A DNA stretch of 57,830 nucleotides from an uncultured Gammaproteobacteria bacterium (GCA_964596405.1 CAZQSS010000002.1:1-57830), one strand, 5' to 3'. Shown: positions 1,335 through 24,872, counted from the first letter of the stretch. The notes: a model not told the origin generated them from the letters alone. Numbers and translations: made by a program.

Positions 1335-1997
1335 CTATTTTGGTAACTCCGTTAAAATCTTTAACTGCATCATTATTTTTTCTTTTAATTCTACCTTGTT
1401 AAACATAATTGTGCAAGTACCATGACCAAACGAACCTTTATGATTTATTCTGCAAGAAAGACTCTCTTTAATATATGGCTTTATAAATTGTTTGATTGAA
1501 ATATTTAAAAATTCTGCCCAGTATTTAATTTCTTTTTTAATATCCATATCTTTGTAAAGTTGCAGTGCGACTTTTAGGTCTTTGCTCTGTACTTTATAAA
1601 TTGATTTTAACCAATATATAAAAAATTTCAATACTTGCGGGTCAGTATTTGCCAAAGCCACTCTTGACCAATCTGCTTTACTGCCCTCACCCCAATATAA
1701 AGCTAACCCAGCAACAAACAGTTCTTTTTTCAAAAAGGGTAAAATGCGCTTTTTTTCAAAATTATATAAATTATTTAACCTCTCTTCTCTCTTTTTAAAC
1801 ATTGTCTGTCTAAATTTTTCAATTCTTATCTCACTGTTAGCTCTTAACTGATTAATCCTTTCTCTAGATAATGGATAATCTCTAAGCCAAGAACTTAACG
1901 TGCTTTTAGAGACGCCTGTTTCATTTTTTATTTGTGAATAACTTTTACCTTCTTTGCGCAACTCAAGAGCTCGCTCTCTTAATTTAATTTTGGACAC
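1335..1997 (-). CDS. HTH plus LAGLIDADG-like endonuclease-fold protein (hypothetical)
   Basis: 220-aa ORF. The N-terminus has a resolvase-type HTH (SYSQIKNETGVSKSTLSSWL) and there is a LAGLIDADG-like block FVAGLALYWGEGSK. The stop codon directly abuts the 5' end of the tRNA. Confidence 0.5.
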   Translation of the reverse strand: MSKIKLRERALELRKEGKSYSQIKNETGVSKSTLSSWLRDYPLSRERINQLRANSEIRIEKFRQTMFKKREERLNNLYNFEKKRILPFLKKELFVAGLALYWGEGSKADWSRVALANTDPQVLKFFIYWLKSIYKVQSKDLKVALQLYKDMDIKKEIKYWAEFLNISIKQFIKPYIKESLSCRINHKGSFGHGTCTIMFNKVELKEKIMMQLKILTELPK

Positions 1998-2094
1998 ATG
2001 AGTGAGGTTTATATAACTTACATTCGTAAGTACAATATATCACGCCTCTCTCCTTTTGACAATGGCCTTTCGTCAAAAACGTCTAGATAAACTA

Positions 2095-2285
2095 AACTCA
2101 TCCTTCTCTAATTCCTGCCTGCCGGCAGGCAGGCGCGCGAATTAGAGAAGGTAATCTGTCCTACGATTCCCTCCTCCGCCAAGCCTGCTTGTCGGCAGAC
2201 AGGGCTACGGCGGGCAGGCGCGCGAATTAAACCAAATAATCTATTCTACGATTCCTGCCTGCCGAGGAGGCAGGAATCGTAGAAT
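2095..2285. repeat. Cluster of nested palindromes built around the CCTGCCTGCCGGCAGGCAGG family
   Basis: TTCTCTAATT-CCTGCCTGCCGGCAGGCAGG-cgcgcg-AATTAGAGAA (perfect 20-bp palindrome at 2114-2133), a degenerate copy near 2183-2225, and an 18-bp-stem hairpin ATTCTACGATTCCTGCCT..AGGCAGGAATCGTAGAAT at 2252-2285. Confidence 0.9.
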
Positions 2286-2297
2286 ACTAAAACAAGA

Positions 2298-2334
2298 AAA
2301 AAATAAAAAAGCCCCACAGGTTGTGCTGTGGGGC
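2298..2334 (-). terminator. Rho-independent terminator of the pilin-like operon
   Basis: Hairpin GCCCCACAG-N5-CTGTGGGGC followed by a T-run on the minus strand. Confidence 0.8.
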
Positions 2335-2347
2335 GGGTGAAATTGTT

Positions 2348-2956
2348 TTACTCCGGCTTGGGGGCAATCTCCATGTTGATGATGATGCCCTTGACCGCGA
2401 GAGGCTGATTGGAGACGTGAACGATCTGGCCACCAGAGACGTAGTGCTGATGGTATACACCCTTCGTGTCCCACCAGTACAGATACTCCGCCGATTGGTC
2501 GTAAGTACCGTCGTCCTGAAGGACTTCTGAGGTTCTGTGTTGCCGTCCTCCGATTGCCACGGGTATTCCACTGAGTTCTGCATTGACATACTGCCCGTCT
2601 ACAGCGGCCACCGTTGTGGGAGTGAGACGCTTCCCTCCGCTCGTCACCTTGCCGCGCACCGTTGAGTAGATAATAACCTGCCCGCTGTAGGCGGAGACGA
2701 CGTAGAGGTGCTTGATTGAACCGGGCTTGTTGTCCTCGGTTAGGCGGTCGGCGACATTCTGCTGTTCGGCCGTAAGACCACCAGCATTGGTCTGAACATG
2801 CACCTCGGCCTGTTTCACGCCAGAGGCCGAAGTCGGTTCGTTTTTCGCCGTGCCGCTTACTCTGGAACAAAATGGAATCATAAGCGCGGCGAGAAGGCCT
2901 ATGATTGCGACAATGATCACGACCTCAATGAGAGTGAAACCATGCTGTTTGCGCAT
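2348..2956 (-). CDS. Type IV pilin-like / pseudopilin-like protein (prepilin N-terminal methylation motif)
   Basis: Start trimmed to MRKQHGFTLIEVVIIVAIIGLLAAL, which matches the class III signal G/FTLIE followed by a hydrophobic helix. The C-terminal domain is unassigned. Lies in a G+C-rich island. Confidence 0.7.
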   Translation of the reverse strand: MRKQHGFTLIEVVIIVAIIGLLAALMIPFCSRVSGTAKNEPTSASGVKQAEVHVQTNAGGLTAEQQNVADRLTEDNKPGSIKHLYVVSAYSGQVIIYSTVRGKVTSGGKRLTPTTVAAVDGQYVNAELSGIPVAIGGRQHRTSEVLQDDGTYDQSAEYLYWWDTKGVYHQHYVSGGQIVHVSNQPLAVKGIIINMEIAPKPE

Positions 2957-2984
2957 TGTCTTTCCCCTTTCTTCTGTTTCTTGG

Positions 2985-3446
2985 TTACTGGGTGATGTAG
3001 GGCTTGAACTCGCGCGGGAGCGGTTTGTCCGCGCCCTTGGGCAACTCACCGGCGTTGGCAAACCGCCAATTGAACTTGGCCATCTGCGCGTTGTACTCGG
3101 CGGCGAGCGAGTTGTAGCTGGCCTTGACGCCGGCCACTTCCGAGGCCCAGACGTTGTACTGCTCGCGATCCTCGCGCGGCCACTTGTGGCGCGGCAGGTC
3201 CTTGTAGGCCTCGGCCATCGCCTTCATGCGACCATCGTAGACCGTCACGTCAGCCTGCTTCTTCTCCAGCTGGGCGGCGGCGTCCTTGAACCACATGTAC
3301 TTCTTGAGCAGAGCCTCGGGGCCGAACTCGTCCTTGGCCACCTGGGCGGCCTCGTTACAGACGAAACAGCCCATGACGCTAAAAACGATCCCGAGAGCCA
3401 AAACCGCGAACACGAACTTCACGCACCGATTCACTACCTGTCTCAT
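2985..3446 (-). CDS. Predicted lipoprotein, function unknown
   Basis: 153-aa ORF with a signal peptide and lipobox (FSVMGC), directly upstream of the pilin-like gene. Lies in a G+C-rich island. Confidence 0.6.
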   Translation of the reverse strand: MRQVVNRCVKFVFAVLALGIVFSVMGCFVCNEAAQVAKDEFGPEALLKKYMWFKDAAAQLEKKQADVTVYDGRMKAMAEAYKDLPRHKWPREDREQYNVWASEVAGVKASYNSLAAEYNAQMAKFNWRFANAGELPKGADKPLPREFKPYITQ

Positions 3447-3450
3447 CCTG

Positions 3451-3488
3451 GCCTCCTTGTCCTCCGTAGCTTTAGCGTAGGAGGACTG
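3451..3488 (-). promoter_or_regulatory. Conserved 5' leader with anti-SD/SD hairpin (copy 1)
   Basis: The minus strand reads CAGTCCTCCTaCGCTAAAGCTACGGAGGACAAGGAGGC and ends 5 nt before the ATG. It is identical to 31978-32016 on the plus strand except for one base. Confidence 0.7.
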
Positions 3489-3562
3489 TATTTTCCCCTT
3501 GATTGGGGAGTTGGTGGATAGGGCAAAACGCCCTTATTCCGCTTTAAAAGATCTAATAAGCC

Positions 3563-3591
3563 ATCATAGCACATTTTGGGACTTTTGTCAA
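3563..3591 (-). promoter_or_regulatory. Sigma70-type promoter (TTGACA-17-TATGAT)
   Basis: The minus strand reads TTGACAaaagtcccaaaatgtgcTATGAT. The same architecture recurs in front of the other G+C-rich islands. Confidence 0.65.
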
Positions 3592-3617
3592 GAGGCGGTT
3601 TGTGTTAAGATAAAGAC

Positions 3618-5366
3618 ATGAAAAGTCTAGCCCAAATCCAAAAAAATCTGGCCAAAATTCTAAAGGCTGAAAAAGGCCTGCCTGCCGGTAGGCATGGCCT
3701 AAATTTTATTGCTGTCCTATCAAAAAAATTTCCCCAAGCCAAAATTTACTTGGTCGGCGGGATGGCGCGAGATTTATTTTTGGGACGCGAATCAAAGGAT
3801 TATGATTTTGTGGTCTGCGGCGTGCCGGCCAAAAAACTGGAAACAATTTTAAAAAAACTGGGCGCCACCAACCTGGTGGGAAAACGGTTTGGAGTTTTTA
3901 AATTCGCGCCTACTCTCCCACCCCCTCTTACTCTCCCCCTCGGGCAGGGGGAGAAAACGATAGAAATCGATATTGCCTTGCCCCGCACCGAACACGCCTG
4001 GGGCACCGGCGGCTATCGCGATGTGGAAACCCAATCCGATTGGCGCCTGCCGATTGAAAAAGATCTAGCCCGCCGCGACTTTACAATTAATGCGATGGCG
4101 TTGGAATTGGGAATTAGGAATAAAGAATTAGGAATTATGGACTTGACCGACCCGTTTGACGGTTTAAGTGATCTGAAGAAAAAATTGATCCGAACGGTGG
4201 GCAAACCCGAAGAAAGATTTAAAGAAGACTTTTCTCGCATGTTGCGCGGCCTGCGTTTTGCCTCGCAATTAAACTTTCAGATTGAAAAAAATACATGGGA
4301 TACATTAGTCAAGATGATGAAAAAAATAAACGCGACATTATGTCATTCCCGCCCCCGATCTGTCATCCCCGCGAACGCGGGGATCCAGTCGAGGGCAGGC
4401 TCCCGCGGGAATCCAGCGGCTGGATCCCGCATCAAGTGCGGGATGACAACGAGTGAACGCATTGTGCCTTACGAAGTTATCTCTAAAGAATTTTTAAAAT
4501 CGCTGGTCATCAATCCCTTAAAAACCGTTGACCTGTGGGATGAGGCCGGAGCGCTAAAACAGTTGATGCCGGAATTACTGAAAATGCAGGGCTGTCCCCA
4601 GCCGCCGGAATTTCACAAAGAAGGCGATGTTTGGACCCACACCTACTTGGCGCTGGGTAATCTTTTTGCTCCACATTTTAAAAAATTCGTCCGTTCCCTG
4701 CCTCCGTCTTTCCAAAATGAACCTCTGATTTCGCCGACTTTGGTTTTGGCGGTTTTATTTCACGACCTGGGCAAGCCTTATACCATCAAAACGCCGGAAA
4801 AAGACGGCGTGGACCGCATCCGCACCAACGAACACGATAGTGTGGGCGCCAAACTGGCCAAACAAATCGGCGAACGACTCCGCTTGAGCTCAGTGCCGGA
4901 CATGCATTGCAATTTAGACCATCTGGCCTGGCTTATCCAACACCATTTGCTGACTGTTCACGGCGACCCGATGAAATTTACTAATCGCACCATTGAAAAA
5001 TACTTCTTCAATCCGCTCGTGCCCGGCACTGACCTGTTAAAACTGATTTATTGCGATCAAATGGCCTCTTTTGTTGGTGGCAAACCCCAACTAGGTTCGC
5101 TCCCCCGCCTGGTTAAAAGAATAAAAATGCTTTTAGGCGGATTGCGCCAAACCAAACACCTGCCTACCGGCAAGGCAGGCCATGCCTACCGGCAGGCAGG
5201 TTTGCCGCCGCCGCTTTTAGACGGCCGCGAAATTATGATGGTCTTAAAACTAAAACCCGGTCGCCTCGTCGGCGACCTAAAAGACCGTTTGCGCGAGGCC
5301 CAGTTAGCCGGTAAAGTTAAAAATAAAAAACAAGCTAAAGATTTTTTAATCAAGATCCACTCCTAA
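3618..5366 (+). CDS. cca: tRNA nucleotidyltransferase (CCA-adding enzyme / poly(A) polymerase family) with HD domain
   Basis: Motifs GGMARDLFLGRESKDYDFVV, RRDFTINAMA and HD (LFHDLGKP). It is interrupted in frame by several repeat-derived segments. Confidence 0.85.
   Translation: MKSLAQIQKNLAKILKAEKGLPAGRHGLNFIAVLSKKFPQAKIYLVGGMARDLFLGRESKDYDFVVCGVPAKKLETILKKLGATNLVGKRFGVFKFAPTLPPPLTLPLGQGEKTIEIDIALPRTEHAWGTGGYRDVETQSDWRLPIEKDLARRDFTINAMALELGIRNKELGIMDLTDPFDGLSDLKKKLIRTVGKPEERFKEDFSRMLRGLRFASQLNFQIEKNTWDTLVKMMKKINATLCHSRPRSVIPANAGIQSRAGSRGNPAAGSRIKCGMTTSERIVPYEVISKEFLKSLVINPLKTVDLWDEAGALKQLMPELLKMQGCPQPPEFHKEGDVWTHTYLALGNLFAPHFKKFVRSLPPSFQNEPLISPTLVLAVLFHDLGKPYTIKTPEKDGVDRIRTNEHDSVGAKLAKQIGERLRLSSVPDMHCNLDHLAWLIQHHLLTVHGDPMKFTNRTIEKYFFNPLVPGTDLLKLIYCDQMASFVGGKPQLGSLPRLVKRIKMLLGGLRQTKHLPTGKAGHAYRQAGLPPPLLDGREIMMVLKLKPGRLVGDLKDRLREAQLAGKVKNKKQAKDFLIKIHS
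3677..3697. repeat. 20-bp palindrome family copy, in frame inside cca (encodes GLPAGRHG)
   Basis: CCTGCCTGCCGGTAGGCATGG. Confidence 0.9.
4341..4448. repeat. About 108-nt compound palindromic insertion, in frame inside cca
   Basis: GTCATCCCCGCGAACGCGGGGATCCAG ... CTGGATCCCGCATCAAGTGCGGGATGAC. Translates to CHSRPRSVIPANAGIQSRAGSRGNPAAGSRIKCGMT within an otherwise conserved enzyme. Confidence 0.8.
5159..5200. repeat. Tandem pair of 20-bp palindrome family copies, in frame inside cca
   Basis: CCTGCCTACCGGCAAGGCAGG followed by CATGCCTACCGGCAGGCAGG. Encodes LPTGKAGHAYRQAG. Confidence 0.9.
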
Positions 5367-17608: not shown

Positions 17609-18424
17609 TCAGAGCGACTTGGGCGGAATAAGGAGCTGTAAGAGAGCTTCACCGGCTTCCAGGATTTCCTGGGTGTCACCGGCTGGCGCGCAACCTTGCT
17701 TGATCTCCAGGTAACGAACCAACAAGCTGTGAACGGCCGTGACTTGCTGGAGCGTCAGGTAGGGGCTAGGTCCGAGCTGACTGTCAGAGAGGGCACTCGC
17801 CGCCATATCCACGTGATTCAGAAGGTACTGGTTGGTCATGTCCAGGTTGTGGTTCGGCTCACTGCAGACGCCGCCGACAGCTCGGCCGGCCCGCCACTCA
17901 ATCACCCGCTGCACCAGGTTGGTCAGGCCAAAATGAGTAACACTCATCATAGCGACATTGCCGGTGACCGAGGAGGTGCTGGCGGTGAAGAAAAGCGGGT
18001 CTTTGAGATTCAGAGACGGATTGGCCGACGGCAGCAGAGTGACAAGTGCGCTTTCCTCAACTGTCTGGGTGTTGCCGCTCACCGTGCCAATCTTGACCAT
18101 GATCTTGTGATACAAAATCCTGTCACCGACCGGCTTGACTTCCACGCTGCCGACGAAATTATAAAGCTCGCTCGGCATGGCCGGTTTGCCCTTTGCTTCG
18201 AAAGTCACCACCTGCTCGACGAATGCGTCCGGGTAATCCATGCTGTGCATGACGAGCGTCAGCTGCGGATTTTCCTCGGGCCTGGCTGCCTCCGGCGGAT
18301 CAACCTTCGGGGCCGGTTTTTCCACGACCGGCAGAACAGTTTGGGCCGACCGCACGGTCACACAACCGCTGCCGAAAACCGTTATCAAAAGAACCGTCGT
18401 CACCGCCAGCATCATCTTTTTCAT
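17609..18424 (-). CDS. Lipoprotein, paralog family member 1
   Basis: Signal peptide and lipobox (VFGSGC). The C-terminal block ..PYLTLQQVTAVHSLLVRYLEIKQGCAPAGDTQEILEAGEALLQLL aligns with 25301-26062 and 26059-26835. G+C-rich. Confidence 0.75.
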   Translation of the reverse strand: MKKMMLAVTTVLLITVFGSGCVTVRSAQTVLPVVEKPAPKVDPPEAARPEENPQLTLVMHSMDYPDAFVEQVVTFEAKGKPAMPSELYNFVGSVEVKPVGDRILYHKIMVKIGTVSGNTQTVEESALVTLLPSANPSLNLKDPLFFTASTSSVTGNVAMMSVTHFGLTNLVQRVIEWRAGRAVGGVCSEPNHNLDMTNQYLLNHVDMAASALSDSQLGPSPYLTLQQVTAVHSLLVRYLEIKQGCAPAGDTQEILEAGEALLQLLIPPKSL

Positions 18425-18476: not shown

Positions 18477-18505
18477 ATGATAGCACATTTTTAGCCTTTT
18501 GTCAA
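18477..18505 (-). promoter_or_regulatory. Sigma70-type promoter (TTGACA-17-TATCAT)
   Basis: The minus strand reads TTGACAaaaggctaaaaatgtgcTATCAT, near-identical in layout to 3563-3591. Confidence 0.65.
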
Positions 18506-18646
18506 GCATAGAAAGATTTGATATAATACTAGTAGTTTTGATAGCTTTTTGGCTAAACCCACACCGATTTCGTCTGTAGTAATTATTTTGATTCATAAGT
18601 CATTTATGAATTAAAGACGATGACCAAATTTTAGCATATTCACACT

Positions 18647-18832
18647 TAAACAGTCAAAAGTTCGCTTATCAGTAGTTACGCAAAATCGCGCGAGCGCTTT
18701 TGCGTAATGGGCGGCGGTTCCCTCCAGTTCCGCTCGTCGCTCGCGCGACTTCGCGTAACTGTCGGATATCTGTAATTTTGCCTTGCCGAGCGCGAGCTCG
18801 TCGGCAAAACTCCAGATATCCGCCGCCCATTA
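18647..18832 (+). repeat. Inter-cassette structured element, copy 1 (degenerate 5' module plus full core 18675-18832)
   Basis: The core is GTTACGCAAAATCGCGCGAGCGCTTTTGCGTAATGGGCGGCGGTTCCCTCCAGTTCCGCTCGTCGCTCGCGCGACTTCGCGTAACTGTCGGATATCTGTAAT-[variable hairpin]-CTCCAGATATCCGCCGCCCATTA. Confidence 0.9.
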
Positions 18833-18910
18833 TACGCCATACATTTTATCATTTTGATATTTTTTCACTCTGCTTTTTGTGAGTGATTGACGAATAAAAC
18901 AATATTTTTT
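18830..18910. repeat. Cassette 1 private inverted repeat, left arm
   Basis: TTATACGCCATACATTTTATCATTTTGATATTTTTTCACTCTGCTTTTT..TTGACGAATAAAACAATATTTTTT matches the reverse complement of 20153-20229. Confidence 0.85.
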
Positions 18911-18954
18911 AGTAATTTGATTAAGATAAAGGTACAAAGAATTATTCAACATTT

Positions 18955-20148
18955 ATGTCCTTGGAACGCGAGCCACAACAACATAATGAAAATGAGACTC
19001 GTGACAAATTCAATGCAAAATTGTCTGAATTGGCTGTCTATTGGTTAAAACTAAAAAATTTATGGGAACAAACGGCAACATCAAGAGACCCCCTTACTAA
19101 CAATGATCCCGACACAGAAATCGCGGGATTAGAAGAAAAAATTGCACCCATCCTCATCGAACTGCTCAATGCCAGCGGAGCGGAGCGTGAACTGCTGTAT
19201 GAAAAAGCTAGAAAAATTCGCGATGAAAATACTGACAAAAAAATTCAAGTTCGAGGTGTTATAGAGGTTAGCAATATCTGTCGTGCCAATTGTCTATATT
19301 GCCCAATGCGTCGAGATAATTTACCCACTACTGAAAAAATACGAATTACTCCAAAACAGATTTATAATCAGGTTAAGGCGACCAAAAAAGAAGGCATTAC
19401 AAATTTTTTCATGCAAAGTGGCGAGGATCCACAAATAATTCCCGTGGTATTAGAAGCATTATCGCTGATTAAAAATGACCCAGAAACGCGAGATATTAAA
19501 ATTGTCTTAAATTTAGGCGACCATTTGCCGAACACATATTCCAAACTGCACGAGGCTGGCGCTGATGGTTATTTAATAAAACACGAAACCTCAGATAAAG
19601 AATTACACCGTCTGATGCGACCTCATTCTACAGTTGAACAAAGAGTATCTCATTTACTACAAGCGCGCCAAGCTGGCATGCACATTGGTACTGGTGTAAT
19701 TGTCGGGTTGCCCGGTCAAACCGATCAATCATTAGCACAGGATATAATTTTTGCCGGTCGCATCGGATCTGAACAGATGGTTAGTTGCTCACCATTTATA
19801 CCGGGTGAAACCACTCCACTTGCAGGAGAACAAGCAGGAGATTTTTTCAAAACACTAAACATGATCGCAATATACCGCCTTCTCTTTCCAGCCGCCCGCA
19901 TTCCTGCAGTAAGTAATTTAGATTCTGCCAAACTCAGTACACGACCACCGGATTTAAAAATTAGCGGACAATCGGCAGGAATAAATGCCGGAGCAAATGG
20001 AATAACCATCAACGTGACACCACCAGCGATTCGCGATATCTATAGCATATACGATGTTAAAACAAGAGAAATTGTTGATTTTTCAAAAGCTAAAAGGATT
20101 GAAAAAGAAACAGGATTAACGCTTGATTTAGATGACAAAGATACATAG
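18955..20148 (+). CDS. Radical SAM enzyme, HydE/PylB/BioB-like subfamily (orphan)
   Basis: CxxxCxxC motif in VIEVSNICRANCLYCPMRRDN. Also MQSGEDP, EAGADGYLIKHETSD..LHRLMRP, GVIVGLPGQT, SPFIPGETTPLA and AIYRLLFPAARIPA, which are all HydE-like blocks. Has an unassigned N-terminal extension of about 95 aa. Confidence 0.85.
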   Translation: MSLEREPQQHNENETRDKFNAKLSELAVYWLKLKNLWEQTATSRDPLTNNDPDTEIAGLEEKIAPILIELLNASGAERELLYEKARKIRDENTDKKIQVRGVIEVSNICRANCLYCPMRRDNLPTTEKIRITPKQIYNQVKATKKEGITNFFMQSGEDPQIIPVVLEALSLIKNDPETRDIKIVLNLGDHLPNTYSKLHEAGADGYLIKHETSDKELHRLMRPHSTVEQRVSHLLQARQAGMHIGTGVIVGLPGQTDQSLAQDIIFAGRIGSEQMVSCSPFIPGETTPLAGEQAGDFFKTLNMIAIYRLLFPAARIPAVSNLDSAKLSTRPPDLKISGQSAGINAGANGITINVTPPAIRDIYSIYDVKTREIVDFSKAKRIEKETGLTLDLDDKDT

Positions 20149-20152
20149 AGAC

Positions 20153-20229
20153 AAAAAAATATTGTTTTATTGACGAGCGAAAAAAGCAGAGTGAAAAATA
20201 ATAATTAGGAAAAAATGTACAGCGTATAA
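20153..20229. repeat. Cassette 1 private inverted repeat, right arm
   Basis: Reverse complement of the left arm (..AAAAAAATATTGTTTTATTGAC..AAAAAAGCAGAGTGAAAAATA..GTACAGCGTATAA). Confidence 0.85.
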
Positions 20230-20448
20230 CAGCCGATATGCGGTTCCGCTCCGCTACACCCATATGCTGACGCACATCGCATATCGGCGAACGTTACGCA
20301 AAATCGCGCGAGCGCTTTTGCGTAATGGGCGGCGGTTCCCTCCAGTTCCGCTCGTCGCTCGCGCGACTTCGCGTAACTGTCGGATATCTGTAATCCCGCT
20401 CGCCCCCCGCGAGGGGCCGGCGGGACTCCAGATATCCGCCGCCCATTA
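20226..20448 (+). repeat. Inter-cassette structured element, copy 2 (5' hairpin module plus core 20293-20448)
   Basis: ATAACAG-CCGATATGCGG...CGCATATCGGCG-AAC followed by a core almost identical to copy 1. Confidence 0.9.
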
Positions 20449-20468
20449 TCTGAAATTGTAAATGCCCC
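20446..20468. repeat. Cassette 2 private inverted repeat, left arm (contains the ATG at 20462)
   Basis: TTATCTGAAATTGTAAATGCCCC, compared with the reverse complement of 21244-21266. Confidence 0.85.
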
Positions 20469-21238
20469 CTTTATTTATTGAAATTAAAAAATTATATTCG
20501 CTTCTTAATCCAAAAACTATGATACATAATCACGACATCAACAAACTTCCTGCCGATGGATATTTAGTGCTTCCTCTATCCATGAGCCGCTTGGCGAATG
20601 GCAAGGGTCAAAGCCCCGAAGAATGTTATGAGGTAATACAATATTTCGAGAATAAAGTCAGCCAAGTTGGAATAGATTTTTTGTTTATTTATACCAATGG
20701 ATTGTATTACAACAATGACGAATCTGCTTTGTCGGTCAGAAAAAAGACTAATCAAGCTATGATTGATCACAGAAACGCATTATTAAAATTAATGATAAAA
20801 AACAAAAAATATATTCCCCAAGCAGCTCATTTTATTCCGTGGGATTATATAATTTTGAATTCTCCGCAATTTTCTGATTATTATCAAAAATTAATTAAGC
20901 TGAAAGAAAATGACGAACAATTCAAAATTACTTTAGAGGAAGCACTAAATGGAAGAGAAAACACAGAAGCAAATATAAATTTTTTAATAGAGGAAATCGT
21001 TGTCACTTACTTGATTAGGCAAAAGTTAATTGAATTTCCCAAAACTCTCGTCAAAAATGATAAATTTCGCTTAGTGATTTATCCTGGAACATATTTGAAG
21101 GCTGATTGTTATCAATGGCAGAAAAAAGCATTGCCACAATTTGAAACATCAAGCGAAAATAGCAACCCATATTATGCGTCACAGTATGATTTTGCCAAAA
21201 AAATATTAAACAGTTTTGATGAAATTCAATTACAATAA
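20462..21238 (+). CDS. Hypothetical 258-aa protein, possibly cyclodipeptide-synthase-like (tentative)
   Basis: No strong motif. The order and spacing of LVLPLSMSRL (near residue 40), IDFLFIYTNG, WDYIILNSPQFSDYY, INFLIEEIVV (near residue 175) and LVIYPG (near residue 205) resemble the CDPS blocks GISxxNSxFS / YVxxExP / xYH. This is based on recall only. An alternative start is M20 at 20519. Confidence 0.3.
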   Translation: MPPLFIEIKKLYSLLNPKTMIHNHDINKLPADGYLVLPLSMSRLANGKGQSPEECYEVIQYFENKVSQVGIDFLFIYTNGLYYNNDESALSVRKKTNQAMIDHRNALLKLMIKNKKYIPQAAHFIPWDYIILNSPQFSDYYQKLIKLKENDEQFKITLEEALNGRENTEANINFLIEEIVVTYLIRQKLIEFPKTLVKNDKFRLVIYPGTYLKADCYQWQKKALPQFETSSENSNPYYASQYDFAKKILNSFDEIQLQ

Positions 21239-21243
21239 GGAGT

Positions 21244-21266
21244 GGGGCATTTACAACATCAGATAA
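21244..21266. repeat. Cassette 2 private inverted repeat, right arm
   Basis: GGGGCATTTACAACATCAGATAA, 5 nt after the stop codon. Confidence 0.85.
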
Positions 21267-21510
21267 CACGGCATATCTGCAAGGGCTAAAGCCACATTTC
21301 GCCACGAAAATTATATAAATAAAGGAGGTGGCGAAACGTCAGATATGCCGAAACGTTACGCAAAATCGCGCGAGCGTTTTCGCGTAATGGGCGGCGGTTC
21401 CCTCCAGTTCCGCTCGTCGCTCGCGCGACTTCGCGTAACTGTCGGATATCTGTAATCCCGCTCGCCCCCCGCGAGGGGCCGGCGGGACTCCAGATATCCG
21501 CCGCCCATTA
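21263..21510 (+). repeat. Inter-cassette structured element, copy 3 (5' hairpin module plus core 21355-21510)
   Basis: ATAACAC-GGCATATCTG...CAGATATGCC-GAAAC followed by the core. Both stems of the 5' module differ from copies 2 and 4 by compensatory changes. Confidence 0.9.
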
Positions 21511-21575
21511 GCGAAAATAAATTACTTTTTCCCGTCCGATTTTGACGATTTTAATTGTAGGGGGCCGAATTTTTG
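21508..21575. repeat. Cassette 3 private inverted repeat, left arm
   Basis: TTAGCGAAAATAAATTACTTTTTCCCGTCCGATTTT..GGGGGCCGAATTTTT matches the reverse complement of 24046-24110. Confidence 0.85.
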
Positions 21576-21633
21576 TAATTGTTGACGAGGGGAACAAACG
21601 GAATAGCCACCTTTTGTAGGGTGGCTATCATTT

Positions 21634-21662
21634 TTGACTTAAAACTGTAAAAAAGGTAAAAT
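21634..21662 (+). promoter_or_regulatory. Candidate promoter of the R-M operon (TTGACT-17-TAAAAT)
   Basis: TTGACTtaaaactgtaaaaaaggTAAAAT, preceded by the hairpin ATAGCCACC-ttttgtag-GGTGGCTAT at 21603-21628. Confidence 0.5.
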
Positions 21663-21688
21663 TAAACCATAAAAACCATTTATCACTT

Positions 21689-22480
21689 ATGAAATATCCT
21701 AAAGATTTTACCAACAAATTCATTACTGGTGATTGTATTAAAATCATGAAACAAATACCGGACGGCTCGGTTGATTTAGTTGTTACCTCGCCTCCCTACA
21801 ATCTCAAAAACTCCACAGGCAACGGCATGAAAGACGGCCGTGGCGGTAAATGGTCTGGAGCGGCGCTGGTAAATGGCTATGATAACTACGACGACAACAT
21901 GCCGCATGACGAATACGCTAAGTGGCAACGCAATTGTTTAACCGAAATGTTTAGGGTTGTTAATGATAATGGTGCTATTTTTTATAATCACAAATGGCGC
22001 GTCCAAGATGGATTACTCCAAGATCGACAAGATATTGTTAGTGGTTTTCCGGTAAGACAAATTATTATTTGGCGACGCAAAGGCGGAATCAATTTTAACG
22101 CTGGCTATTTTTTGCCAACCTATGAAGTAATTTATCTTATCGCAAAAAATAATTTCAAATTAGTATCAAAAGCCAACGCCCACGGCGATGTGTGGGAATT
22201 TACCCAAGATATGAACAACCCTCACCCCGCCCCATTTCCGGTCGCGCTGATTGAACGAATCGTTTCCTCCACCAACGCCCAAACTATTTTGGACCCATTT
22301 ATGGGTTCAGGTACTACGGCCGTTGTAGCTAAAGCATTGGGACGAAAATTTATTGGCATTGATATTTCACCTAAATATTGCGAAATGGCTGAGGAACGAC
22401 TCGGACGAAATGTAAAACACAACGAAATGGAACTTCTAAAACCTCAAATGAGTATTTTTAAACTACAACGCGCCGTATGA
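21689..22480 (+). CDS. DNA methyltransferase, beta-class N4-cytosine/N6-adenine (SPPY motif)
   Basis: Motif IV VVTSPPYN lies N-terminal and motif I DPFMGSGTTAVVA C-terminal. Overlaps the endonuclease gene through ATGA. Confidence 0.9.
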   Translation: MKYPKDFTNKFITGDCIKIMKQIPDGSVDLVVTSPPYNLKNSTGNGMKDGRGGKWSGAALVNGYDNYDDNMPHDEYAKWQRNCLTEMFRVVNDNGAIFYNHKWRVQDGLLQDRQDIVSGFPVRQIIIWRRKGGINFNAGYFLPTYEVIYLIAKNNFKLVSKANAHGDVWEFTQDMNNPHPAPFPVALIERIVSSTNAQTILDPFMGSGTTAVVAKALGRKFIGIDISPKYCEMAEERLGRNVKHNEMELLKPQMSIFKLQRAV

Positions 22481-23265
22481 AAATTTACACCAAACCACAG
22501 TTAATCACAAAACTAAAAGAAATCTCAAAACAAGGTTGGATACCAAACGGCCGACATGGCAATGCCGGCGGAATTGGTAACACTTTGGAAGACTTGTTGG
22601 GAATCGAAGAAAATAATTTGCCAATTCCAAACGCCGCCGAATGGGAACTTAAAACACAACGGATCGCTACAAGCTCGCTCACTACTCTTTTTCATACTGA
22701 GCCATCACCACGCGCGGTAAAATTTGTACCACAAATATTACTACCACTTTATGGTTGGAAACACGACGGAGCAGGAAAACAATACCCTAAGAACGAGATG
22801 AGTTTCCGACAAACAATTCATGGGCACAGTCCAAGCGACCGTGGCTTTATTGTAAAAATTGACCGCGCAGAACAAAAGGTTTTAATTTCTTTTGACGCCT
22901 CAAAAGTGGCCAAAAAACATAAAATTTGGTTAAAATCCGTCAAAAAGAAAGTCGGCAACTTAAACGAACTCAATCCCCAACCTTATTGGGGTTTTGATGA
23001 TCTGGGACACAAAGCCGGCACCAAACTTCTGAACTGTTTTTATGTCCAAGCCAAAGTGAAAAAAGAAAAAGGCAAAGAATTTTACCATTACACAAAAGTA
23101 ATGATGTTACAAAAATTCAGTTTTGAAAAATTTTTAAACGCTCTTGATGAGGGCAAAATTCTAGTGGACTTTGACGCTCGCACCGGCCATAACCACGGCA
23201 CAAAATTTCGGATGAGACAAGATTGTTTGCCGATGTTGTATGAAAAAACCACCTCAATAATATAA
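22477..23265 (+). CDS. Type II restriction endonuclease, MvaI/BcnI (MutH-like) family
   Basis: N-terminus MKIYTKPQLITKLKEISKQGW and the blocks GNTLEDLLGIEENNLPIPNAAEWELKT and HYTKVMML resemble BcnI/MvaI as I recall them. Translationally coupled to the methyltransferase gene. Confidence 0.75.
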   Translation: MKIYTKPQLITKLKEISKQGWIPNGRHGNAGGIGNTLEDLLGIEENNLPIPNAAEWELKTQRIATSSLTTLFHTEPSPRAVKFVPQILLPLYGWKHDGAGKQYPKNEMSFRQTIHGHSPSDRGFIVKIDRAEQKVLISFDASKVAKKHKIWLKSVKKKVGNLNELNPQPYWGFDDLGHKAGTKLLNCFYVQAKVKKEKGKEFYHYTKVMMLQKFSFEKFLNALDEGKILVDFDARTGHNHGTKFRMRQDCLPMLYEKTTSII

Positions 23266-23274
23266 AACAATAAA

Positions 23275-23985
23275 TTGCTAACCAAATTTATGAAAAAAAT
23301 CATAATTTATTTAAAATTTTTTTGGGTGGCAATACTTTTGTTTATATTATCTATAATTTGCTGGTACTACTTACCAGAAAATTATAACAATTTCAAAGGC
23401 AATTTAATCGCTTCTATTCTCGGCGTTGGAATCGCAATTTTTACTGCTGAGGGTTTTAAAAATATTAACGACCATAGACGAATCAAAAAGAACTTCGGAT
23501 TTTTAAGGCTTATTGTAATCCCTTATCTAAAAAATCAAACACAAAATTTTATAGATACAGCGAATGGTTTCCAAGATATATGTAATAAAGTACAAGCCGT
23601 CAATTTTATCGCAGTCATATCCAGCATAAATGAAATGAGTAATACATTTGATAAAAGCTGGCTTCAATTAATCTTCTCCCAAGATTTTATTGATGCTATA
23701 AAAACAGATGAACACTTCAATAAAATTTCCCACACTATATTGGAATTATTGTTATTCATAAGTTCAACAACAACATTATCCGCAAACGCAAAAACACTCA
23801 TGTTAAACAATGTCGTCCAACTCGACGAAGAAGCGACCAAAATGTTTATAACAAAAGCACGCGAGTTTAGATCGGCCTTAACCAAAAGTGCTCAAGATTT
23901 ACAGAAATACGTTAATTTACTAGACCAAGAAATGGAATTATTTTTTCGAGAGAATAATGTTATTTACCAAGAATTTGAAAGATGA
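23275..23985 (+). CDS. Membrane-anchored (2 TM) helical protein, unknown function, third gene of the R-M cassette
   Basis: Two N-terminal hydrophobic helices followed by an alpha-helical domain of about 170 aa. An alternative start is MKKII at 23290. Confidence 0.55.
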   Translation: MLTKFMKKIIIYLKFFWVAILLFILSIICWYYLPENYNNFKGNLIASILGVGIAIFTAEGFKNINDHRRIKKNFGFLRLIVIPYLKNQTQNFIDTANGFQDICNKVQAVNFIAVISSINEMSNTFDKSWLQLIFSQDFIDAIKTDEHFNKISHTILELLLFISSTTTLSANAKTLMLNNVVQLDEEATKMFITKAREFRSALTKSAQDLQKYVNLLDQEMELFFRENNVIYQEFER

Positions 23986-24045
23986 TTATACATATTTGGT
24001 GAGGGCGCAATTCACCCCTAACCCCTCTTGCGCCCGCCAACGACG

Positions 24046-24110
24046 AAAAAATTCGGCCCCCCATTATATTTAATAAAATCGAACGGAAAAAAGTAATTTA
24101 CATTCGCTAA
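24046..24110. repeat. Cassette 3 private inverted repeat, right arm
   Basis: AAAAAATTCGGCCCCCC..AAAATCGAACGGAAAAAAGTAATTTACATTCGCTAA. Confidence 0.85.
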
Positions 24111-24405
24111 CAGCCGATATGCGGTTCAAGAAAAAGAGTGTAAAATATTTTCAGCGGATACTCTTTTTCTCTCACCCATATTTCGCACAAATTTAATTTT
24201 AATGGAATGTGCGAAACATCGCATATCGGCGTACATTACGCAAAATCGCGCGAGCGCTTTTGCGTAATGGGCGGCGGTTCCCTCCAGTTCCGCTTGTCGC
24301 TCGCGCGACTTCGCGTAACTGTCGGATATGCGGCGCTTCGCTACATCCCGCCCTCGCCTCGAGCCTTGCGGCTCGGACGGGAAGTCGCATATCCGCCGCC
24401 CACTA
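24108..24405 (+). repeat. Inter-cassette structured element, copy 4 (expanded 5' hairpin module plus core 24235-24405)
   Basis: TAACAG-CCGATATGCGG...CGCATATCGGCG-TAC followed by the core. The 3' stem is GGATATGCG/CGCATATCC instead of GGATATCTG/CAGATATCC, which is a compensatory change. Confidence 0.9.
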
Positions 24406-24428
24406 GGCGAAATTTATTTAATTTTTTT
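24404..24428. repeat. Cassette 4 private inverted repeat, left arm
   Basis: TAGGCGAAATTTATTTAATTTTTTT, immediately 5' of the ATG at 24429. Confidence 0.75.
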
Positions 24429-24734
24429 ATGCATAAAGATGTTAGGCCTATTATTAAAGCAACAATATTTATAATTGTTGTGCTGTTAATAGCATGTCCT
24501 TTCTGGTTAAGAATTTTAATTAAAACTGCAGACAAAATGAGCATGAGTATGGGTGACGATAGTATGTTAGAGACTAAGGTCGCTGCCTGGATAATATTAA
24601 TCGGGGTCTTGTTAGTTTGGTTAATTCCTTGGTTGATCCAAATTATCTTATCTGTATACATTTTTAATAAAAATTCTCAACAATCTGATGCAATACTCAA
24701 AACTCTAAAAGATATAAAGAAAAAAATTAAATAA
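24429..24734 (+). CDS. Small (101-aa) two-TM membrane protein
   Basis: Start trimmed to MHKDVRP because the upstream part of the tracked ORF lies in the repeat. Two hydrophobic helices and a Lys-rich tail. Confidence 0.55.
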   Translation: MHKDVRPIIKATIFIIVVLLIACPFWLRILIKTADKMSMSMGDDSMLETKVAAWIILIGVLLVWLIPWLIQIILSVYIFNKNSQQSDAILKTLKDIKKKIK

Positions 24735-24745
24735 ACATCGCATAA
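24720..24745. repeat. Cassette 4 private inverted repeat, right arm (overlaps the last codons and the stop)
   Basis: AAAAAAATTAAATAAACATCGCATAA. Confidence 0.75.
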
Positions 24746-24765
24746 CAGGGGGATATCCGATTCCG
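24742..24765 (+). repeat. Terminal partial copy of the inter-cassette element (first approx 24 nt of the 5' module only)
   Basis: ATAACAGGGGGATATCCGATTCCG, compared with ATAACAGCCGATATGCGGTTCCG in copy 2. Confidence 0.7.
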
Positions 24766-24834
24766 ATACATTGTACGAAATTTTAAAAAACAAATTTTTT
24801 ATTTTTATATAGAGCCCTTTTGAAATTTTTTTTT

Positions 24835-24872
24835 GGAAATAAAGAAGACCCGCCTTTGTAAGCACGGGTCTT
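24835..24872 (-). terminator. Rho-independent terminator of the lipoprotein operon
   Basis: Hairpin AGACCCG..CGGGTCT followed by a T-rich run on the minus strand. Confidence 0.7.

Follow-up and report, generated by a model that had tools for sequence, protein, structure and literature searches.

In integrons, including sedentary chromosomal ones such as the superintegron of Vibrio with its Vibrio cholerae repeats (VCR), a divergently encoded tyrosine recombinase (IntI) lies beside an attI site with repeated boxes, and a one-directional array holds cassettes that mostly carry a single accessory open reading frame (ORF) or none, their order varying between populations. Each cassette ends in an imperfect palindromic attC site (...TAAC / GTTA...), where crossover takes place at G|TT; the bases that open a cassette pair with the R'' box of that same cassette, and extrahelical bases impose the choice of strand. 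The integrases are thought to recombine single-stranded hairpins through an acquired I2 helix, which has been described as indispensable for capturing cassettes and as found in no other protein (PMC7790495). Here we describe an array at 18.66-24.77 kb of a 57,830-nt stretch of DNA (GCA_964596405.1 CAZQSS010000002.1:1-57830; "the window" is this whole stretch) which, together with related arrays elsewhere, resembles integrons in the layout of recombinase gene and attI-like site, the direction and content of the array, the cassette ends and their crossover, and the pairing of the first cassette bases. We consider it likely that the window contains an array of cassettes belonging to an integron-like system of site-specific recombination, one that is widespread among Patescibacteria. 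The anatomy of the array, the covariation within its sites, its association with a recombinase and its reshuffling between populations were all observed, and they define a recombinase-linked, polymorphic, one-directional cassette array with junction sites selected to fold. The array is real and probably active.

The differences from integrons are equally clear. The present recombinase has no I2 helix and scores below the cut-offs for integron integrases, and the present sites have no extrahelical bases. Their R box is 12 nt long, contains two conserved mismatches and extends, by cassette-specific pairing, to about 24 bp; at the centre of the site is a three-way junction conserved in sequence rather than a free-form loop; one junction was found on the R'' side; and the host is a member of the Patescibacteria. 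Like the clusters of attC sites lacking integron integrases (CALIN; Cury et al. 2016), the window array comprises at least four clustered sites with no integrase within reach; CALIN are defined through the canonical attC model (PMC4889954). The window array opens with an attI-like box, and therefore has the appearance of a second platform, not of a fragment left by decay.

Xer/dif systems (XerA, XerS-difSL and XerH-difH), the integrative mobile elements exploiting Xer (IMEX, for example the CTX phage) and pdif modules form the second group of relatives, since the recombinase matches the XerA model over its full length and an 11-7-11 core-type site adjoins its gene. In the CTX phage a folded single strand mimics the duplex site for an Xer enzyme without I2 (PMC7790495). 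Unlike Xer/dif systems, the present one has several arrays per genome and no consistent terminus signature; its cassettes are co-oriented rather than alternating as in the pdif modules of Acinetobacter plasmids, and its structured sites measure 70-135 nt as opposed to the 28 bp of dif. The array recombinases may also be likened to the "Cand" simple tyrosine recombinases, which are Xer-related too, lack an arm-binding domain and were reported solely from candidate phyla, with no substrate or function (Smyshlyaev, Barabas and Bateman, 10.1101/542381).

The original prediction for this locus, made from the sequence alone, was an integron-like array of four gene cassettes separated by a long conserved element. 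Four direct copies of a GC-rich element (family D1; 18672-18838, 20290-20456, 21352-21518 and 24232-24398) do alternate with four plus-strand gene blocks, the coordinates first given being off by no more than a few bases. By BLAST the copies share 89-99% identity, and the quoted 95-nt consensus was found with single-base differences in copies 3 and 4. A 23-mer of the element, TAATGGGCGGCGGTTCCCTCCAG, occurs four times in the window, always on the plus strand, with none expected (100 shuffles). The G+C content is 32-41% in the array region and 50-60% in the genes on both sides. The additional 5' module beginning (A)TAACA was seen in copies 2-4 as described. Pfam agreed with the proposed cargo, identifying a radical SAM protein and an N4/N6 methyltransferase with an MvaI/BcnI endonuclease; the remaining products are an unknown protein of 258 aa, a 236-aa protein in the restriction-modification block and a 101-aa membrane protein. 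Two features had been overlooked. Each gene block is bracketed by a block-specific inverted repeat of 23-49 nt (repeats I2, I12 and I18), which begins directly after ...CCCATTA and stops directly before TAACA, and a fifth site, short and terminal, lies at 24734-24781. The "element" is in fact two things, an attC-like 5' hairpin module and an ORF-less GC-rich core cassette. What had been taken for a single site of 225-300 nt, longer than attC, is a 70-135-nt module, within the size range of attC, followed by a separate core with a breakpoint at each end. The array consequently consists not of four cassettes but of eight, four with genes and four core copies of 152-167 nt.

This division rests on contigs from Hainich groundwater metagenomes (wells H41 and H51), the same aquifer as the window. 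Those encoding exactly the same radical SAM protein break off at the repeats. In contig L005 the radical SAM cassette is preceded by a 268-aa cassette, then a module, then a core, while in L004 it is followed by cassettes of 96, 129 and 83 aa, with two junctions made of the 5' module alone and no core (...AAACGTTA|TACGCC). In L002 module M2 is joined directly to another cassette (GTTA|TCGGAAAT). L009 has a 207-aa cassette upstream of the same module M4, and L010 and L013 have two other modules ahead of core 4 and the 101-aa cassette, so that core 4 follows three different modules: one in the window and L009, one in L010 and one in L013. Identity between contigs breaks within (A)ACGTTA or TTA(T) and once, in L009, at TAAC. 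Breakpoints thus fall at the end of the module and on either side of the core, which identifies the 5' module as the recombination site and sets the core apart as a unit of its own. As in integrons, then, the cassettes are individually mobile at the level of contigs, their neighbours in L002, L004, L005, L009, L010 and L013 differing from those in the window.

The same contigs bear on the simplest alternative, namely that four near-identical copies within 6 kb are a local segmental duplication, or a selfish repeat of the repetitive extragenic palindrome or miniature inverted-repeat type, with no role in gene mobility. For this to hold, it had been suggested, the element should occur nowhere else and the locus should be invariant in relatives. 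The element family was instead found in several Patescibacteria metagenome-assembled genomes (MAGs), the core family in at least seven MAGs besides this one and with compensatory changes, and the module family in many metagenomes and one phage contig. Furthermore, the copies always sit exactly between GTTA| and TTA-nnn-GAAAT, and their neighbours differ between populations. We therefore regard duplication as scarcely credible.

The folding of the modules was analysed in an alignment of 29 distinct sequences drawn from the window, from MAGs and from metagenomes. Each runs ACATC-nnn-TAAC, a spacer of 1-2 nt, a stem of 11-12 bp, a three-way junction, the returning stem, a spacer of 3-5 nt and GTTA. 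All 29 have TAAC, the central TT of GTTA and internal motifs without variation, and the single-stranded motifs of the junction (GGTTC, CACCCAAAT and ACTTC) are conserved. The consensus fold has 22 pairs, 17 of which show compensatory double changes. Standard pairs fill 97.7% of the paired cells compared with 70% in shuffled alignments, 170 cells are changed on both sides compared with 47, and the covariation score of 0.661 (0.156 when shuffled) was reached by none of 500 shuffles and fell to 0.15 or less once the partners were slid by 1-3 columns. The L stem is formed by 12 contiguous pairs, is 99.7% paired and has no bulge or extrahelical base in any of the 29 sites. Thus, of the two asymmetries of integron sites, the unequal spacers are present and the extrahelical bases are not. 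Of 35 distinct modules, 31 are 70-135 nt long and the other four 180-196 nt; those of the window measure 70, about 95 and 131 nt, compared with approximately 55-141 nt for attC. The attC boxes (R'' RYYYAAC and R' GTTRRRY, with crossover G|TT) are recognisable, and the RYYY and RRRY positions fit loosely, as had been noted originally. A recognition box, AC[TA]TC-nnn-TAA, occurs three times per site: as R'', as ACTTC plus L', and inverted as R'.

Covarying helices could also belong to a structured non-coding RNA, the core or the module being a cis-regulatory or processing RNA ahead of each gene. The element is GC-rich amid AT-rich sequence and its predicted fold is very stable (z = -7.5), as would be expected of such an RNA, but the minus strand folds better still (z = -8.3). 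With one constant G-T position set aside, only two of about 590 paired cells are G-U, too few for RNA helices; this scarcity fits DNA helices, with pairing on both strands, better than RNA. In agreement with the earlier remark that the element resembled no known RNA motif, the only Rfam match in the whole window at the gathering score was a tRNA, and relaxing the limit to E values up to 10 gave only chance-level matches in the array region. In addition, the ends of the core and the module are all recombination breakpoints, and many arrays have no core. An RNA element is accordingly highly improbable.

A covariance model built from the modules (R1), of the kind that had been called for at the outset, matched sites both in the window and in recombinase-linked arrays. 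Its matches in the window, all on the plus strand, are three strong sites, the 3' half of every core (E 0.001 to 0.1) and the terminal site; there was none in the rest of the 57.8 kb. Among viral contigs, a loose module pattern gave mostly chance matches, R1 matching in 3 of the 80 listed loci, and this set served as a negative control for R1. The phage contig is IMGVR_UViG_3300028595_000036 (L154, 35 kb), in which nine module matches fall within 2.1 kb (1624-3950). That array lies directly downstream of a 776-aa ORF, terminase-like by its translation, a TTGACA-type promoter and an attI-like box (...GCGTATAAAAAGAGTTA|GATGAAAT), and its cassettes are merely 150-300 nt long with tiny ORFs that run into the TAAC box. 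This means that the site family is carried by a phage too.

The cassettes obey common rules across arrays. They start with the pattern TTA-nnn-GAAAT..., and in 30 of 57 inter-module intervals the first and last 24 nt are complementary beyond the 95th percentile of non-cognate pairs, with two conserved mismatches where GAAAT lies opposite ACATC. Since the ends are self-complementary, excision as a circle would bring them together in a single long hairpin site. In 42 of 47 cassettes the longest ORF points the same way as the array. The cargo is diverse and accessory in kind; judged by eye from translations, it includes radical SAM/SPASM, Fic, GNAT, kinase-like, deaminase, methylase and glycosyltransferase proteins as well as membrane proteins.

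The original prediction saw no recombinase in view, and a Pfam scan of 30 ORFs of the window, which left out the rest, including one of 709 aa, likewise revealed no recombinase or transposase. The divergent ORF to the left of the array (17609-18424, minus strand) was considered as a hidden recombinase and rejected, since its signal peptide and lipobox mark it as a lipoprotein and it has no homology to the recombinases. A faint lead was a 220-aa ORF with a homeodomain-like helix-turn-helix (HTH_23; 1335-1997, minus strand) that abuts a tRNA at 1263-1334 and could be an integrated-element remnant or a transposase fragment.

In complete loci elsewhere the picture is different. A gene for a tyrosine recombinase of 270-280 aa lies 90-180 nt from the start of the array and diverges from it; in three loci from Genome Taxonomy Database MAGs (L021, L023 and L034) the protein has 272-276 aa and the distance is 110-120 nt. 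In the array-adjacent recombinases every catalytic residue (R, K, H, R, H and Y) is invariant. For those of the three MAG loci, the best NCBIfam model was the XerA-type NF040815 (223, 252 and 244 bits against a cut-off of 220), matched at positions 3-261 of 263. The two integron-integrase models were matched in two stretches and below their cut-offs (TIGR02249, 202-228 bits against 265; PRK15417, 118-154 bits against 435). In a structure-based comparison the recombinase aligned end to end with XerA of P. abyssi, and residues 172-246 of VchIntIA (2a3v), the IntI-specific insertion with the I2 helix, had no counterpart; by this feature the array-adjacent enzymes are not IntI-type integrases. A C-terminal G-x-x-SPL motif is common to the recombinase and IntI. 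A metagenome scan with these proteins gave 80 loci, in which 65 of 69 R1 matches lay upstream of the recombinase gene on the opposite strand (search space, 311,652 bp upstream and 318,897 bp downstream). Among close homologues whose upstream flank reached 600 nt or more, 19 of 23 were accompanied by an array, compared with 6 of 37 distant homologues. One locus departs from the divergent layout, L042 (5524-13612), where the module matches are on the recombinase strand and on both sides of the gene.

Between gene and array lies a conserved attI-like region, with a distal box A[CG]TTCG[CT]ATAA[CT]AT[AG]CAA and a proximal box ACTTCG[CT]ATAA-nAACGAG-TTA|nnnGAAAT, the latter an 11-7-11 site with inverted arms. 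The box A[CG]TTCG[CT]ATAnnAACGAGTTA lies 88-176 nt away from the recombinase gene in L036, L037, L040, L048, L050, L052, L053, L057, L058, L064 and L082, and at the array starts of L019, L021, L023, L026, L028, L029, L032 and L034. The start of the window array, AAGTTCGCTTATCAGTAGTTA|CGCAAAAT, fits the proximal box. Hence an attI-like site beside a divergent recombinase gene is seen in the related loci, and in the window the attI-like box and a promoter-like site alone (Table 1). Two MAGs each have two contigs with the same array-start region and the same first core (L029 and L034 in SMAG_U8153, L023 and L026 in JTS-AC97). The shared region is about 105 nt in one MAG and about 30 nt in the other, and in each the recombinase is upstream on one contig and ClpB or FtsK on the other, which reflects either two platforms per genome or assembly ambiguity.

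Table 1. Coordinates of the array and its parts in the window (R1, covariance model of the modules; H1 and H2, core hairpins)
Feature	Position	Strand	Details
Strong promoter-like site, candidate cassette promoter	18499..18527	+	TTGTCA-17-TATAAT with TG; 11/12 consensus matches; points into array, ~150 nt upstream of its start
attI-like proximal box	18658..18678	+	AAGTTCGCTTATCAGTAGTTA; ends at first crossover point G|TTA (18675|18676)
Core copy 1, ORF-less GC-rich cassette	18676..18829	+	Hairpin H1; outer H2 helix GGGCGGCGG/CCGCCGCCC; inner degenerate attC-like site 18747-18840 (weak R1 match, E 0.1)
Cassette 1, radical SAM gene 18955-20148 and module M2	18830..20293	+	Pfam; end repeats 18830-18878 / 20181-20229 (I2)
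Module M2	20218-20304 (R1)	+	75.5 bits, E 9e-18; TAAC 20227-20230, GTTA 20293-20296
Core copy 2, ORF-less cassette	20294..20445	+	100% identical copy ahead of radical SAM cassette in L005
Cassette 2, 258-aa unknown ORF 20462-21238 and module M3	20446..21355	+	Ends complementary at 21/24 positions
Module M3	21255-21366 (R1)	+	65.5 bits
Core copy 3, ORF-less cassette	21356..21507	+	
Cassette 3, three ORFs and module M4	21508..24235	+	End repeats I12; ends complementary at 21/24 positions
Promoter-like site of cassette 3	21634-21662		
N4/N6 DNA methyltransferase	21689-22480	+	Cassette 3
MvaI/BcnI-type endonuclease	22477-23265	+	Cassette 3
236-aa ORF	23275-23985	+	Cassette 3
Module M4	24099-24246 (R1)	+	87.6 bits, E 5e-21
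Core copy 4, ORF-less cassette	24236..24402	+	Different inner hairpin; ends CCCA|CTA
Cassette 4, 101-aa membrane protein 24429-24734 and short degenerate terminal site	24403..24770	+	End repeat I18
Terminal site of cassette 4	24734-24781 (R1)	+	E 0.006; TAAC 24743-24746, A|TTG 24770|24771

These results allow the suggestion of an integron-like array or CALIN to be weighed. It is borne out by the reordering of cassettes in sister populations and by the related arrays beside a divergent tyrosine recombinase, but not by the enzyme, which has no IntI-specific insertion, nor by the sites, which have no extrahelical bases. Of the defining features of integrons that were compared, the system lacks these two and has the others. 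The TAAC and GTTA ends resemble R'' and R' boxes. Ends of the form ATAAC...GTTAT recall the VCR of Vibrio. With co-oriented cassettes and modules in the attC length range, it might therefore be asked whether the array is an ordinary integron or CALIN with plain attC sites and a canonical IntI elsewhere in the genome, new only in its host phylum. This is very unlikely, since the gene adjacent to such arrays is consistently a recombinase without I2 that falls below both integron-integrase cut-offs, the L stem is a perfect 12-bp helix in every aligned site, and sequence conservation extends to the junction motifs and the 12-nt R box, which is not the case in attC. A full-text literature search also brought up no integron or cassette array described from the candidate phyla radiation (CPR)/Patescibacteria, the sole related mention being the uncharacterised "Cand" subgroup; the coverage of the search was incomplete, and an earlier description is possible.

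The Xer-like character of the enzyme and its lack of I2 raise the question of whether it is a housekeeping Xer recombinase and the 11-7-11 site the chromosomal dif, with cassettes that hijack Xer in the manner of IMEX, tandem arrays that arise by double-stranded recombination and hairpins that serve some other purpose. The attI-like site is 11-7-11 symmetric (ACTTCGCATAA-TAACGAG-TTAnnnGAAAT) and adjoins the recombinase gene, as difSL adjoins xerS in streptococci, and the same layout is repeated in the 3' part of each module. However, there are several arrays per genome, some without a recombinase (three contigs in JTS-AC97, four in SMAG_U8153 and three in RIFOXYC2, plus the window), and a location of the site at dif or the terminus looks improbable because GC skew shows no consistent switch there, with no change of sign across the site in most of 13 loci and a monotonic skew in the window. 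Both findings weaken a dif or IMEX reading. The putative central regions also differ among modules, normally a block to double-stranded exchange, stems that covary so strongly by Watson-Crick pairing call for a folded form, and the cassettes, 250-1500 nt long, hold a single ORF each and carry neither replication nor phage genes. Overall we consider a housekeeping Xer/dif system unlikely.

The integron-like system that we favour could operate as follows. By analogy with integrons and the CTX phage (PMC7790495), we infer that the sites act as folded single-stranded DNA and undergo single-strand exchange. The enzyme would be the Xer-like tyrosine recombinase of 270-280 aa, with all catalytic residues and without the I2 helix, and the window array, with no recombinase gene in the window, would be served in trans or be an orphan. 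The folded strand would display R-box and L-box duplexes around an unpaired spacer and so mimic a core site, one strand would be exchanged at G|TTA, and replication would resolve the recombination product. More tentatively, and with somewhat less than even confidence, we propose that Patescibacteria and at least one of their phages possess true gene capture through folded hairpin sites and an Xer-like enzyme without I2, with recognition relying on the conserved three-way junction and the conserved stem mismatches in place of extrahelical bases. This would be either an independent invention of the integron principle or a relic from before I2, of the stage that gave rise to integrons. A recombinase without I2 paired with fold-selected sites that have no extrahelical bases would provide a natural test case for the origin of integrons from Xer-like enzymes. 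The range of cassette-based gene capture would, moreover, come to include the CPR, whose members have small genomes, depend on hosts and have poorly known routes of gene gain. Since assemblies break at repeats, such arrays are probably under-represented in MAGs.

Several observations weigh against the favoured interpretation. No recombinase was found among the 30 scanned ORFs of the window, this genome's own enzyme was not found, and 4 of the 23 close recombinase homologues have no array. The activity of the array is deduced from polymorphism between contigs, which assembly at repeats can distort. The TAAC-side junction of L009 is not predicted by a strict integron mechanism; it may be that both strands are usable, which would fit the lack of extrahelical bases in the sites. 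Finally, the 3' part of the site (ACTTC-nnn-TAY, 8-9 bp, TTA-nnn-GAAAT) resembles an ordinary double-stranded core site, and so the folded form may not be the one that recombines and a double-stranded reaction on this part is possible.

The core forms an ORF-less cassette family of its own. Its short form, of 59 nt, consists of hairpin H1 followed by the GC-rich hairpin H2, and in the long form, of 153-172 nt and found in the window, the H2 loop contains a second canonical-looking R'' box (ACTTCGCGTAAC) with its own stem. Among 13 distinct complete cores H1 was paired 10/10, with three different arm sequences, and H2 9/9, with five. H1 combines a cassette 5' end (TTA-nnn-AAAAT) with an R''-like box (CTTTT-nnn-TAAT) 11-12 nt apart, and the short core is thus a minimal empty cassette with a simplified site. 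Cores follow either a module or an array start. They are almost absent from the 80 recombinase-centred loci, and are therefore optional; to judge from this near-absence and from the core-free junctions of L002 and L004, the platform does not require a core. A role as promoter cassette was likewise rejected, no copy containing a sigma-70-like site. The core may be a self-propagating or regulatory empty cassette. ORF-less integron cassettes are similarly short, free of ORFs and independently mobile (PMC6557892), but the core differs from them in having no internal promoter-like site, in being conserved across genera with compensatory changes, and in being repeated four times in one array, one ahead of each gene cassette.

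In a scan of genome collections, a degenerate H1 pattern occurred at 18 loci, in Magasanikbacteria, Moraniibacteriota, unclassified Patescibacteria and three MAGs labelled as Gammaproteobacteria. The latter (L019, L022 and L028, "uncultured Gammaproteobacteria") have the core and typical array starts, and either their labels are wrong or the element extends beyond Patescibacteria. A match in a Micrarchaeota MAG (L018) is probably due to chance, H2 and the expected context being absent.

Other features were noted around the array. Between the lipoprotein gene and the array start, at 18583-18607, is a dif-like palindrome, ATTCATAA-gtcat-TTATGAAT, which may be a regulatory site or a terminator. 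After the last array site, at about 24813-24835, the window contains ATAGAGCCCTTTTGAAATTTTTT, which is also found at the distal end of the unrelated metagenomic array L057 and may represent a conserved array end or a remnant cassette. Two other families of AT-rich palindromic intergenic repeats (12379-12505/30287-30424 and 14783-14873/31768-31858), unrelated to the array, lie between housekeeping genes; they are about 83% identical and match in both orientations.

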